The notes: generated by a model not told the origin, from the sequence alone. Counted from the first letter of the whole stretch, positions 62 to 55,407 are shown. The stretch: DNA of 55,407 nt, filler included, from Stramenopiles sp. TOSAG23-6 (GCA_900128565.1; 3 parts of 3 records of this genome joined end to end with filler, not necessarily neighbours in it); one strand, 5' to 3'. A program made the numbers and translations.

Positions 62-1047
62 ACTAGGAGCCATACACTCAGCTTTCTGTGTCGATTGTTT
101 ACCTGAACTATTCAATTTTTCTCCATTCTGGCATAGGCGGACTTCATAATCTCCTGGTTCTGATAGTCGAAAGGACCAGTGAGTAAGACATACTGTGAAA
201 AAATATTTTTTTGTAAAATTTTTTGTTAGGTACGAAATTTCGTACGAAAAAATAAATGTATACAAAACATTGAAAAAAAATAAAACATACGCTATGCTTT
301 ATCCATACTGAAGCTACTGCACAATTTATTGTCGATGGCTTGCTTGTCTCTGTTATATTTTGATAGACTTTTGGTTCAATTAGGATGTGTCTACTGTTGA
401 TCCACTTGGCGGCACATTGAGAGGGAATTTGTGGGACTGAGTACATGTATTGTAAAAAAAATAAATTCGAAATTAGTTAGGTACAAAATTTCGTACGAAA
501 AAAAAATAAATTTGAAATTCATCATGAAAACGTACAGCTGTGCCAATATTGACGCAGATGAAACATTATAGAAATTATTATCATCTTGTTGTGAACTATT
601 ACCCGGGATATTGAATGCTATATCTGTTTCATCCATATTTTTATGCACTTCTTGTTCAAGACGCAGTGACATTGTACCATTACGAAACACTTCTCTATTT
701 GAAATTTTCGTATGACAAGTTTTATTTCTCATTAAGGTTCCGTTAATATCGTTGCACATGGTTAATGCACCAGCTTGTTCAATGTTTTTTTTAACAGGCC
801 ATCTTGCGATAGCATCGCTATTATGACCATGCGCCACAAAGAGGCCAAGCCAAAATTGTTCATCTGGTAAATGATGATTCGGAAAATCAAATGAAGCTTT
901 AGCGACTACCTTTTCGTATTCGCACACAATTTGTCGTGATAAATCTATATCAAAGCTTTCAGTGACTACAGAGTCTAGACAACACGAAAAAACCAAAAGA
1001 AGAAATAAACAATCTAAAATATAAAATGAGGCATTTAATACTACCAT
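62..1047 (-). CDS. Secreted hypothetical protein, 3'-partial; exons 1047-536, 444-291, 187-62
   Basis: Hydrophobic N-terminus (LFLLLVFSCCL). The frame stays open across two introner-type introns and runs into a third at the contig edge. Confidence 0.6.
188..290 (-). mobile_element. Introner-like intron GT..GT (preceding exon ends GC)
   Basis: Family core; ends CACAGTAT-GT; frame stays open. Confidence 0.7.
445..535 (-). mobile_element. Introner-like intron GT..AT (exon ends CT)
   Basis: Core present; ends ACAATAC-AT; joins LAQL-YSVP. Confidence 0.8.
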
Positions 1048-1333
1048 TATTTTGATACTTTCTCCAAAAATTTACGTATACATCAGTTTAACATCTATGT
1101 GCGAAAAAAACCGTTGGTGATAAAAATGATACTACGGCAATGTGATACGATTTGTGTGACTGAACGTATCTTTCGCGATATAATTGGCGTTGAGTCGAAA
1201 AAAAAAATATGAAAAATAATGAAATAACACGATAACACGAAATAATCCTTTTTTTATTACATCCTAGTTATTTTTTTTTTGTGGATCGCAGCCATCCGAA
1301 AACAAATATGAACACTCTAGCCAGTTTGAGTTT

Positions 1334-52626: not shown

Positions 52627-52984
52627 TCTTATATGAACGACTGAGTAAGACTAAATGATTGAACAATAATAATAATTGTCCAGTTATATACTTTTACGTA
52701 CACTTGCCGTTAGCCATCGCAATCATTTTACTCATCCTAACTTTTTGCGCTGAAATCATTACAACATAAGATAACAGGTTTGTCCAAGATTGTGCTCGGT
52801 CAAAAAAAGAGTAGTGTCCTCTTACGTACAAAAATTGTATACAAAAAGTAAAATTCGCGCGACTTCACTCCGAAATACACAACACGAGAAAGAACCCGGG
52901 GGAAAGACTTTACTTTTTTTTATTACGTTTTGAGGGAGAATTTTTCCCACTATTGAATTAGGTGTTTGTGATAGTGAGAGTCAT

Positions 52985-55407
52985 ATGTCGGAATCTGGTG
53001 GATTGAATGTCGAGGGATCATTCTCGTTTGGAGTTGATTCACTTGGGCAGAGCATACCAATAGATAATAGTGATGAGATTACATTTGACTTTTCCAAAAC
53101 TACTGAATTTACTTTGAAAGTTTCGGAAGACGAGGAAGAAACTGAGTCTGATTCTAGTGAATCTGAATATTCAGAAGTAGAAATAGAAGAAAAAACAGAA
53201 AAAGATATCTTATGTGAGTATATTGCAGAGTTAAACGAACTTCAACTTGAAATACAATCTAATGTTTCGATTGGCATTGTCCGAATAATTCTTAGCAAGC
53301 TATGTCGCCTCAATGCTCTTGTTTTACAAATGAGACGATCTGAAGAGGATGATAATATTTTATTTTTGACAATATTACATGTAATACGCAGGCTTCTAGA
53401 TGAGGATGACCTTGAAGGCTTAAGCTCTTGCCATATATTTTTAACATTTCTTAGAGCATCGCTCACCCATGCTACATTTCCATTAGCTTTCCATTATGTA
53501 TCTTCAATATATAAGCTAATTGATGCAAATGTTGCAAAGATGAAAACTCTTCGTAACGCAATAAAGAAATCTCGTAAGGATTCAAAGTTACCCATCAATA
53601 ATCAGAACTTTGAAGAGTTTGGTAAAGTTGTACGTTTTCATCAAGAATTTTAAATTTTTTTTCGTACCAAATTTCGTACCTAACGATTTTTTTTCTTGCA
53701 AAAAAAAAAATATATATTTTTTTACAATACTTGTTTCTAGTCGAGCCGAAGATTTGCAACAAACTATACAAGAACAGCAACAGAAAAAGTCTTTCTTGGC
53801 CCAGTTAAATAGTGTATTACGTCATGTATCTGGTTGGTTATCAAGTGATGGCAGAGAAGTACATGTTACAAATAGGTTGAGTGAAGCAATTTTAGAGACA
53901 AACGAAATCATTAGACTTGATGGCTATGGTTCAAATTTTAGTGGGTTGGGAGTCACCGGCTGCGACATGGATCTTAGTCTGAAAATCCTCCCAGGAAGTA
54001 TACACGATTTTTTGAATGATAGAGCACGAAAACAGGTTCTGGAAAAAGTAGAGGATTTGAAAAAACAACAAAATAAACCTGAAGATGGTACGGAAGCAAT
54101 ATCAAATGAAATTGATCCTGAGCAGTTACATCGGATGTTTTCAGTTGTAGTTCTCACTGCAGCAAGCTCTAAAATAATGAGTAATACACATATATTTGCT
54201 GAGTTGCCAGGTAATGATGATCTAGAAAAAAAAAATAAAGAGTTAAATGAAGATGAGGAAGTCATTAGCACAAAAATTGTATCTAGTGCTAGAGTTCCAA
54301 TTTTAAAAGTTAATATTCAAAAATTTAATATGCAATGTGATATATGTATAGATAATGAACTTGCAATTAAAAACACTTCATTGCTTCGAACGTATGTAGA
54401 TTTAGATGTTCGTGTTCGTACGTATTCATTATGAATTTTTTATCTATAATTTTTTTTTTATACGAAATTTTGTACCTAATGATTTTTTTTTTTGAAATAT
54501 TTTTTCACATTACATGACCCTTGATATTTCTTGTGAAGCAGTGGGCTCGTAGTCGAGGTGTAAAGGATGCGTCTAATTGTACGTTAAGTTCGTATACTTG
54601 GTGTATTTTAGTTATTTTCTATTTACAGACGGAAGAGGCATTTGTACGTTTTCATCAATTTCAAATTTCAATATTTTTTTACTATGAAAATTTTGTACCT
54701 AACAAAAAAAAAATTTCCGGTAAAAAAAAACAAAAATATTTTTCACAATCAATACGCTTCCTAGTATACAGAATGAAAATATACTAAAGTATGCAAATGA
54801 ATCTAAGGTAACTGTTGAAGGGCATGATGCAACATTTTGTAGTGATATAGATGTTGTGAAAAAGTATATGCAAAAATATGGTTTATCATTTCCCCCAAAA
54901 AAAAACAAAAAAAAAAATGGAACAAAACCTTCCATTGAAAATTGTAAAATTACACCATCTACAAAAAGTGTAGGTGAATTAGCGTATGGATTTTTTAGAT
55001 ATTATGCATATACATTTAATTATGAATCAAGTGTTGTTTCGATCCGATTGTATGTTTTTTTTAATTTTTTTTCAATTTCGAATTTTTTTTTGTTTTGTAC
55101 GAAATTTCGTACCTAACAAATTTTACAAAAAAAAAAAAAATTTTCACAATACATAGGTGGTGGTTCAAAAGTATATAGAAAAAAACAGTATAGTACAGAT
55201 AGTTTAAATGGTCGTCATATCCCAGGTTGGAGAATTTGTGTAGAAGATCCATTTGAGCGATCACATGATCTTGGTTCTGTAATACGATGTCGTGAAGGAA
55301 TGTATGTTTTATTTTTTTTAATTTCGAATTTATTTTTTTTTCATACGAAATTTTGTACCTAACAAATTTTTTATAATTTTTTTTGAAATATTTTTCCAAA
55401 ATACATG
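52985..55407 (+). CDS. Cid1/TUTase/GLD-2-family non-canonical poly(A/U) polymerase (3'-partial, five introns)
   Basis: YGSNFSGLGVTGCDMDL, ARVPILK, CDICIDNELAIKNTSLL, DVRVRPL..VKQWA, LSSYTW, ICVEDPFERSHDLG. Confidence 0.9.
53630..53732 (+). mobile_element. Introner-like intron GT..TT (TT/TT)
   Basis: Joins GKV-VSSR in frame. Confidence 0.82.
54418..54515 (+). mobile_element. Introner-like intron GT..AT (exon ends TC)
   Basis: Restores DVRV-R-PL; boundaries shifted left create TGA. Confidence 0.9.
54644..54753 (+). mobile_element. Introner-like intron GT..AT (3' end uncertain by one codon)
   Basis: Joins EEAF-TLPSIQ. Confidence 0.65.
55050..55154 (+). mobile_element. Introner-like intron GT..AT (exon ends TT)
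   Basis: Joins VSIRL-GGG in frame with EDPF; the AG 2 nt downstream leads to a stop. Confidence 0.88.
55302..55406 (+). mobile_element. Introner-like intron GT..AT (AT/AT) at contig end
   Basis: Full consensus copy. Confidence 0.82.

Follow-up and report, generated by a model that had tools for sequence, protein, structure and literature searches.

A probable introner family with 3' junctions set by position rather than by AG in a marine stramenopile

The stretch of DNA analysed here (the window) comprises 55,407 nucleotides of Stramenopiles sp. TOSAG23-6 (GCA_900128565.1), made of three records joined with filler. It is AT-rich (GC 0.23-0.41), contains 515 N, and carries genes or gene parts for GAS8, CstF77, an ABC-F protein, a UTP15-like protein, a terminal uridylyltransferase (TUTase)-like protein and proteins with LRR, Arm/HEAT-repeat and MACPF domains, which are interrupted by inserts of ~90-150 nt. 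These inserts are one high-copy repeat family, alike over their whole length. The original prediction had described inserts with a GTAYGT donor, a branch-like box and no usable AG, a description upheld here by 47 nhmmer matches, by reading frames preserved in 27/27 complete copies and by the failure of the first AG in 23/23 copies. It overlooked that the introns are copies of a single transposon-like family (an introner), so that the motif at their ends is carried by a mobile element. On the evidence set out below, this is probably an introner family resembling miniature inverted-repeat transposable elements (MITEs), in which the 5' site and branch box are canonical and position, not AG, fixes the 3' junction. 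Sequence of the window is present in small libraries labelled 'organism A', in seawater metagenomes from a different year and, as a small share, in seawater metatranscriptomes, and the source-given name of a public protein, P0121, points to an uncultured marine stramenopile of MAST-3 type.

A hidden Markov model (HMM) of the element was trained on 17 well-formed copies and gave the 47 matches in the 55-kb window with nhmmer at E≤0.01. Curation of these retained 25 complete copies; the matches set aside were those mirrored in the second arm of an inverted duplication, those that N runs or the window edge interrupt, composite pieces, the intergenic fragments 7587-7645 and 11033-11091, and an internal antisense self-hit (55089-55140). 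Two complete copies (38115-38266 and 11416-11554) joined the set later, giving 27 that are spread over at least ten different genes. Shuffled sequences would be expected to contain 0.80 occurrences of TACCTAAC, the branch-like box of the family, and the window contains 36. Summed word depth in the likely source DNA run (X1) is ~4-8x10^5 in element bins as against ~150 in unique sequence, a ~4000-fold ratio that is similar in an independent seawater metagenome (X3) and that indicates a copy number of the order of thousands. An extra copy, with GTATGT... ...ACAT ends, lies on an unrelated metagenome contig, L001, which was the sole locus returned when a contig collection was scanned for the element core. 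An Rfam search of the window found no matching family.

The element is conserved in four parts, namely GTAYGTTTT at its 5' end, the palindromic TTTCGTACGAAA in its centre, a TTTYGTACCTAAC box and a 3' box, TTTT-C-A-M-A-A-T-A-C, after which come two variable bases; the terminal motif of the family is TTTTCAMAATAC. A U2-like 5' splice site (GTRNGT-like) is present, with G1, T2 and T6 found in 25/25 and A3 and G5 in 24/25 of the curated copies. The TACCTAAC box is a CTRAY-type motif situated 32-53 nt before the junction and is a candidate branch site. Towards the 3' end, positions -10 to -3 are occupied in the same 25 copies by C19, A23, C15/A7, A24, A21, T24, A23 and C20/T4, and the variable pair by A19/T4/G2 at position -2 and T19/G5/C1 at position -1. 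The inverted termini (GTATGTTTT and AAAATAC) form an imperfect pair of 7-9 nt, of which GUA/UAC alone is consistent among copies. In the element centre (e.g. 50489-50500), just upstream of the branch-like box, TTTCGTACGAAA is a perfect 12-nt palindrome that may serve the mobile element for protein binding or hairpin formation.

The segment predicted to be excised, from the GT through the second base past the terminal C of the element, is strongly supported by reading frames and by comparison with homologous proteins. With the donor fixed at GT, ends from -7 to +7 around 'terminal C + 2' were compared for long stop-free flanking frames, and the class holding offset 0 wins in 24/25 curated copies, where chance would give 1 in 3, with margins such as 62 codons against 26 and 16 or 265 against 9 and 16. 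The sole exception, e54644 in the TUTase-like gene, has a 4-nt insertion in its 3' box and fits with an end 4 nt upstream, which gives the junction YLQTEEAF/TLPSIQ (a slash marks the junction), presumably typical of the Cid1/TUTase family; its end therefore reads AT and not GC. The two copies that joined later also obey the frame rule, which brings the count to 27/27. Together with four copies placed by the 3' motif only, these 27 frame-verified copies provide 31 unique 3' ends, namely AT 19, AG 4, TT 3, GT 2, TG 2 and AC 1. The dominance of AT had been predicted correctly, although the exact counts then given (32 introns: AT 21, AG 4, TT 3, GT 2, AC 1 and TG 1) did not stand. Few signals in eukaryotic gene expression are as conserved as the terminal AG of introns; here the AG expected of U2-type introns is found in 4/31 unique copies and the other 27/31 end differently.

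Since the reading frame alone is blind to offsets of -3, 0 and +3, homologues and curated profiles were used, and eight junctions were without indel against Pfam profiles or homologues: four in GAS8, two in ABC-F and one each in CstF77 and UTP15. In tblastn comparisons of the ABC-F protein with four EttA-like homologues, the exons end at 468 (N), span 469-494 and resume at 495, so that the exon ending in DEPTN, followed by an 89-nt insert and DLD, and, 78 nt on, the exon ending in ISH, followed by a 103-nt insert and DRW, are both joined seamlessly, as had been predicted for DEPTN/DLD and ISH/DRW. The five GAS8 exons fall on the Pfam GAS profile (PF13851) with exon 1 ending at 22, exon 2 covering 23-77, exon 3 (78)79-125, a split codon at 126, exon 4 (127)128-162 and exon 5 163-200; the GAS8 junctions ending in AC, TT, GT and AT are hence all free of indels. 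The corresponding residues DITH/NNL, KEL/AEY, EL[Y]TEF and RKD/AQL are exactly colinear with this profile, and among them DITH/NNL and EL[Y]TEF had been proposed from the original sequence reading. Scored with a GAS8 profile built from 41 full-length homologues (430-500 aa) chosen among 149 matches, with P0121 excluded, the position-rule protein reaches 525.7 bits, and all sixteen shifts of ±3 or ±6 fall at 508.8-519.0. In CstF77, residue 86 of exon 2 corresponds to position 263 of the Suf profile, so that residue 92 corresponds to 269, and residue 1 of exon 3 is at 270. A search for CstF77 homologues gave none above threshold, low-complexity words probably having crowded the candidates, and a PDB search with the 92-aa middle exon gave no match. 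Across an AG-ended copy in the UTP15-like gene, UTP15_C coordinates run 77, 78 (split codon) and 79, from which it follows that the AG-ended copies obey the same position rule. The RV[R]PL junction is likewise required, as had been claimed, because the alternative boundary yields a stop codon.

The ABC-F protein (49550-50719, +) is of the bacterial EttA/ChvD type, with ~50% identity to bacterial EttA and best matches that include proteins of 799 and 842 aa; its first ABC domain is not in the window. It may be a translation factor that is targeted to an organelle or was gained by horizontal transfer, and its gene now has eukaryotic introns. The last ~65 nt of its coding sequence, including the stop, are tandemly repeated with two substitutions at 50640-50790 (+). 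Upstream, an inverted duplication extends over 36700-49580, with its centre at ~43094 inside an element copy and with the same open reading frames (ORFs) and element copies mirrored on both arms. This is probably an amplification or assembly chimera, and the exon upstream of 49436 may consequently not belong to the ABC-F gene, which makes the junction there unreliable.

The distance from the A of the branch box to the junction varies from 32 to 53 nt and positions -10 to -3 are conserved, so that the junction tracks the terminal box rather than the branch distance or the terminal dinucleotide. The earlier claim that the acceptor is chosen independently of AG is in this sense supported by a fixed offset from the terminal motif, by the variable branch distance and by nearby AGs that are bypassed; the modified spliceosome then proposed is conjectural. 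The two exon bases flanking the 5' end (the flank pair) equal the terminal pair in 13/28 copies, compared with 8.5 expected by permutation (P=0.007). For ends that are neither AT nor AG, flank identity is found in 3/7 against 0.57 expected (P=0.01), as GT/GT, AC/AC and TT/TT. Flank-identical copies are also nearer to the family consensus (43.3 vs 34.7 bits, one-sided P=0.047), and the two later-added copies, 38115-38266 and 11416-11554, which stand outside the flank-identity test, are both AT/AT. A 2-bp target-site duplication, mostly of AT and decaying with age, is moderately supported by these patterns, although the flank pair differs from the terminal pair in 15/28 copies. Of the four AG-ended copies, three rank with the most diverged (two with scores of 20.3 and 23.5 bits, where the remaining copies average 39.8, and 13769-13867, which is below HMM detection), and the fourth, 49436-49547, scores 50.2; in this small sample there are hints that old copies drift towards AG.

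The proposed history is that a short non-autonomous transposon-like element colonised the coding sequences of a marine stramenopile in thousands of copies. Each copy would supply the 5' site GTAYGT, the branch box TACCTAAC, with the branch A near its end, and the 3' box TTTTCAMAATAC, and insertion would probably duplicate a 2-bp target, in most cases AT. The RNA removed would then comprise the element together with one of the two duplicates, restoring the original frame exactly. Because the last two intron bases would come from the target site, the 3' junction could not rely on AG and might be set by pairing of intron positions +1 to +4 with -3 to -6, or by a factor recognising the 3' box. The intron positions +1 to +3 (GUA) are pairable with -3 to -5 (UAC), and the helix would cross the 5' junction where AU is the last exon pair. 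Sense orientation relative to the host gene is common to all 27 complete copies, and this, with a donor and branch box in each copy, argues for strand-specific removal from RNA and not for ciliate-like elimination from DNA. The agent would be the major spliceosome, to judge from the canonical 5' site, the branch box and the restriction to sense orientation. Tentatively, and with confidence a little short of even, we propose that the major spliceosome of a heterotrophic marine stramenopile lineage needs no AG at the second step and cuts 2 nt past a YACAAUAC box, which may be positioned by pairing with the 5' end of the intron in a manner that mimics U1.

Several results weigh against this account. 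The termini are paired in only 5/8 minimum-energy folds, the fold z-scores of the eight copies range from -2.35 to +0.36, with 6/8 no more stable than shuffles, and RNAalifold found no consensus structure on a MAFFT alignment in which the 5' ends are misaligned. The inverted termini are short, and covariation is uninformative on terminal pairing since the consistent GUA/UAC pairs are invariant. The boundary rule needed a realigned end in e54644, and profile coordinates are off by 2 for Suf across the composite 4021-4215 and by about 5 for PAP_assoc across 55050-55154, both in variable regions. A canonical GT-AG intron of 107 nt (16751-16857, +; GTAATT...ACAG, phase 1), located between two ankyrin-repeat ORFs and without detectable kinship to the element by its HMM, indicates together with the four AG-ended copies that the machinery also uses AG. 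Comparison of 48598-55406 with two seawater metatranscriptomes (RNA runs X7 and X8) gave contigs for the exon pieces 51281-51437, 51643-51795, 52282-52510 and 52975-53125 and for element copies, with none bridging an insert among those listed. In these runs, elements exceed exons in depth by about the same ratio as in the DNA runs, so that genomic DNA or unspliced transcripts may account for the RNA signal. A search for short protein fragments of the same species across GAS8 exon 2 found none.

The same element and the same segment could also be excised by a structure-guided or dedicated non-spliceosomal route, as proposed for euglenids, whose introns have inverted ends and target-site-like repeats according to the sections on these introns in PMC11282704. 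The paired termini, which bring the junctions together in five of the folds mentioned above, and the indifference of the junction to AG would both be accommodated by such a route. However, a strong GTAYGT and a branch-type box of exact conservation are retained in every copy although such a route would need neither, the terminal helix has 3-4 conserved pairs in folds mostly no more stable than shuffles, and four diverged copies have gained an AG in that same place, as though on their way to ordinary splicing. A non-spliceosomal route is accordingly regarded as unlikely, though it is the best placed of the alternatives to spliceosomal removal at position-defined junctions.

Somewhat less likely again is that both boundaries lie two bases upstream (NN/GTAYGT...AATAC/), which would make the inserts an AT-AC-like class, with AC at the 3' end and often AT at the 5' end. 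The terminal TAC of the element resembles the ends of AT-AC introns. Where the flank pair equals the terminal pair, as in 13/28 copies, GT..NN and NN..AC boundaries give identical mRNA. In contrast, the shifted boundary at 54418-54515 introduces a stop before an in-frame, conserved PAP-associated domain, and that at 8351-8438 scores 1.2 bits lower with the GAS8 profile. These penalties, and the fact that the four AG-ended copies are plain GT-AG introns, are the reasons for taking GT as the 5' site. Shifted boundaries would further leave a perfect GTAYGT unused beside an arbitrary 5' dinucleotide, and 32-53 nt separate the branch box from the end. A U12-type donor (RTATCCTT) is absent, as the original prediction stated, and GTAYGTTTT stands in its place in the 25 curated copies.

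A conventional explanation would be that ordinary AG acceptors, cryptic or downstream, are used and yield proteins with small indels, or that many of the genes are inactive. Canonical AG use exists in this organism, and the public GAS8 model P0121 (7661-9454, -) was built in this way. This model, however, scores 444.7 bits, 81 below the position-rule protein: it has 100% identity over exon 1, then runs into the four inserts and loses flanking residues, and it also loses 10 residues of exon 1 to a small intron that is spurious. Its 90% cluster has a single member, and other gene models of the same assembly are probably affected like it. When alternatives for the four GAS8 inserts were enumerated (GT/GC donors from -60 to +40 nt, AGs from -70 to +90 nt), 48 in-frame stop-free GT/GC-AG combinations were obtained, all of them at or below 516.7 bits vs 525.7, the best one using a poor donor. 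In the 23 non-AG copies, use of the AG that comes first 8 nt or more beyond the branch box would result in a frameshift in 21, an in-frame stop in one and, in the last, an 11-residue insertion that would hit the conserved SHDR loop (H-loop) of ABC-F, so that frame or a conserved motif is broken in 23/23. An AG 4-5 nt ahead of the junction is bypassed in 188-290, 8604-8704 and 50285-50373, and its use would break the frame. Maintenance of the frame in 27/27 copies would be unexpected for dead genes. AG acceptors or gene death are thus improbable, marginally more so than the AT-AC-like class.

Removal at the DNA level, as for the internal eliminated sequences of ciliates, with the assembly representing a germline-like form, would suit short AT-rich elements with inverted ends, a possible 2-bp flanking repeat and a need for precise removal. 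It is very improbable, because DNA excision would have no cause to be strand-specific and yet 27/27 complete copies are in sense, and because RNA splicing signals are present. DNA contigs of X1 pass through copies at exon depth (e.g. 51160-53683 at depth 156), with no joint that skips a copy among the X1 joints listed, and the genetic code is standard, with nothing that suggests a ciliate. An assembly or consensus artefact concealing true AG ends, for which the small amplified library, the N runs and the probable chimeric inverted duplication might speak, is the least probable of all, given that the ends are diverse (AT, TT, GT, AC and TG) and each preserves the frame, that Logan contigs of X1 (not independent) have 0 differences over 50319-50470, that the unrelated contig L001 has the same ...ACAT end and that X3 contigs enter 51832-51933 and 53630-53732.

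Introners have been described in several other lineages. The original paper on those of Micromonas and Aureococcus is reportedly that of Huff and Zilberman. The relevant part of PMC11282704 presents these as MITE-like, near-identical short introns with inverted termini and a target-site duplication, in which splicing removes the element plus one duplicate; the element carries one or both splice signals, and the AG is borne by the element or comes from a duplication of at least 3 nt. The stramenopile family is similar in its many near-identical short introns at unrelated sites, with the coding sequence apparently restored, but differs from these AG-ended introners in its apparent and variable 2-bp duplication and in the AT, TT, GT, AC or TG ends of 27/31 copies. 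In the dinoflagellates Symbiodinium and Polarella, introner-like elements of many classes show massive gain, with splice sites supplied by the element itself, by the duplication or by the flank, boundary types that shift with copy age (5' GT/GC/GA, 3' AG) and duplications of 3-8 nt, as outlined in the portions concerned of bioRxiv 10.1101/2020.10.14.339549. Whereas the variation there is at the 5' end and the 3' end is AG, here the 3' end varies and the 5' GT is constant. Amoebophrya introners have, in the account excerpted from PMC7789003, no consistent dinucleotides at either end, inverted repeats of 8-20 nt and direct repeats of 3-5 nt, and U1 is reported missing. Repeated introns with non-canonical termini and a marine protist host are common to both on that account, as inverted and direct border repeats may be; however, the present family has an invariant 5' GT, a near-invariant branch box, an inverted pair of at most 9 nt and an apparent repeat of 2 nt, with only the 3' dinucleotide free.

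Transposon-derived introns of Fritillaria borealis are processed despite non-GT/AG ends, with types AG-AC and AG-AT, in the passage devoted to them in PMC11282704; this tunicate shares the -AC/-AT ends and the transposon origin, as far as that passage goes, but differs by a non-canonical 5' end and an animal host. The nonconventional introns of euglenids have, in the same source's section on them, variable junctions, inverted ends that join the junctions, target-site-like repeats and a suspected MITE origin, traits that the present family has or may have as well; they have no GT donor and no branch or polypyrimidine signal in that description, +4 to +6 pairs with -8 to -6 (CAG/CTG), and they are released as circles. 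The GTAYGT donor and the branch box set the present family apart from introns so described. U12-type introns tolerate variation in the 3' dinucleotide, and GT-AT is known only as a rare subtype in animals in the pertinent part of a U12 survey (bioRxiv 10.1101/2022.09.24.509304), but they have a TCCTTRAY about 10-20 nt from the 3' end and an RTATCCTT donor, both absent here, where the branch-like box is 32-53 nt away. In the open-access literature searched, no account of GT-AT introners or of AG-independent or non-AG introners was found, nor any report linking introners with MAST-3, Nanomonadea, Incisomonas or Solenicola, and GT-AT occurred together with stramenopiles in that U12 survey alone. 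The words 'splice' and 'canonical' are absent from the main text of the MAST single-cell genome paper (PMC5778133), and the main texts of two further MAST genome papers make no mention of introns or non-canonical splicing. By its own account, a recent introner survey dropped families with non-canonical sites unless transcript-supported (PMC12130899), and such a filter would miss a family like this one in an unannotated assembly. The literature thus agrees with the earlier statement that the rule is known from no described lineage. The family does not stand apart from all known kinds, since it adjoins the transposon-derived non-canonical introns; within these, the combination of a canonical 5' site and branch box with an AG-free 3' end is judged to be new.

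If position-defined 3' junctions are real, a relaxed rule would let a transposon that duplicates 2 bp insert harmlessly nearly anywhere in coding sequence and become the dominant intron class. The lineage would then be a natural system where 5' and branch sites are still canonical but the terminal dinucleotide no longer governs the choice of 3' splice site. The few lineages known to violate the AG rule widely (Fritillaria, Amoebophrya and euglenids) depart from the 5' rule too or rely on unknown machinery, whereas here only the 3' dinucleotide would be free, which would isolate the problem of second-step recognition. The introner model would be extended too, in that an element could succeed without carrying or co-opting an AG if its host tolerates a position-defined 3' site. 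Gene prediction restricted to canonical sites mis-built proteins here, and the proteomes of this organism and of its uncultured stramenopile relatives, where they serve in reference sets for metatranscriptome annotation, are likely to be systematically in error at such introns. The copies of the element in the window are collected in Table 1.

Table 1. Element copies in the window, with their ends, flank pairs and junction coordinates (a slash separates the residues joined)
Feature	Position	Strand	3' end	Flank pair	Remarks
5' part of copy cut by window edge	1..61	-			
Element e191	188..290	-	GT	GC	AG 5 nt upstream would shift frame
Element e446	445..535	-	AT	CT	
Element e1460	1459..1544	-	AT	AT	
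Element e2160	2156..2298	-	AT	CT	143 nt, extra internal sequence
Two-copy composite in CstF77	4021..4215	+	AT		Donor from first copy, 3' end from second
Element e4500 in CstF77	4493..4582	+	AT		Donor GTAGGT; Suf profile 269/270
Element in GAS8	7913..8005	-	AT		GAS profile 162/163
Element in GAS8	8116..8205	-	GT	GT	GAS profile 125/126 (split codon)/127
Element e8353 in GAS8	8351..8438	-	TT		Donor GTGCGT; GAS profile 77/78
Element in GAS8	8604..8704	-	AC	AC	GAS profile 22/23; AG 5 nt upstream unused
Element	10542..10657	+	TG	TT	
Composite copy in LRR gene	11416..11554	-	AT	AT	
Element in LRR gene	11711..11810	-	AT		Donor GTAGTT
Diverged copy in MACPF-domain gene	13769..13867	+	AG		Donor GTAAGT; below HMM detection
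Element	18304..18411	-	AT		Upstream exon hidden by N run
Element in Arm/HEAT-repeat gene	21554..21644	+	TT	AT	
Element	37236..37449	-	AT		Donor ambiguous (37449 or 37494); clear 3' end
Element with internal telomere-like TTTAGGG-type repeats	38115..38266	-	AT	AT	
Element	38560..38679	-	AT	GC	
Element	39428..39518	-	AT	AT	
Composite copy	39824..39974	-	TG		Placed by 3' end only (AGTAC+TG)
Mirror copies of 37236-39974 elements	46215..49315	+			Second duplication arm, not independent
Element before ABC-F exon	49436..49547	+	AG		Upstream exon possibly joined by assembly chimera
Element in ABC-F (EttA-like)	50285..50373	+	AT		89 nt, GTACGT...GACAT; DEPTN/DLD; AG 4 nt upstream unused
Element in ABC-F	50452..50554	+	AT		103 nt, GTATGT...ATACAT; ISH/DRW
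Diverged copy in UTP15-like gene	51110..51223	-	AG		AG at 'end+2' position; UTP15_C 77/78 (split codon)/79
Diverged copy in UTP15-like gene	51832..51933	-	AG		
Element in TUTase-like gene	53630..53732	+	TT	TT	
Element e54448 in TUTase-like gene	54418..54515	+	AT	TC	NN..AC boundary gives stop codon
Element e54644 in TUTase-like gene	54644..54753	+	AT		After realigning end 4 nt upstream
Element in TUTase-like gene	55050..55154	+	AT	TT	
Element at window edge	55302..55406	+	AT		Placed by 3' motif

Further traces of the element and one large ORF were observed in the window. A partial element copy lies at 11005-11125 (+) between direct repeats of ~28 nt (GTAATAAAAGCTACATTAAAATAATAAA-like), outside long ORFs. 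At 38170-38255 (-), mirrored at ~48300-48380 (+), telomere-like repeats (TTTAGGG-type, with T-rich variants) replace the 5' half of one element-derived intron. An unbroken ORF of 2688 codons with strong purine and A skew occupies 26610-34673 (+); it has no Pfam match, and no element copy is found across its 8 kb.

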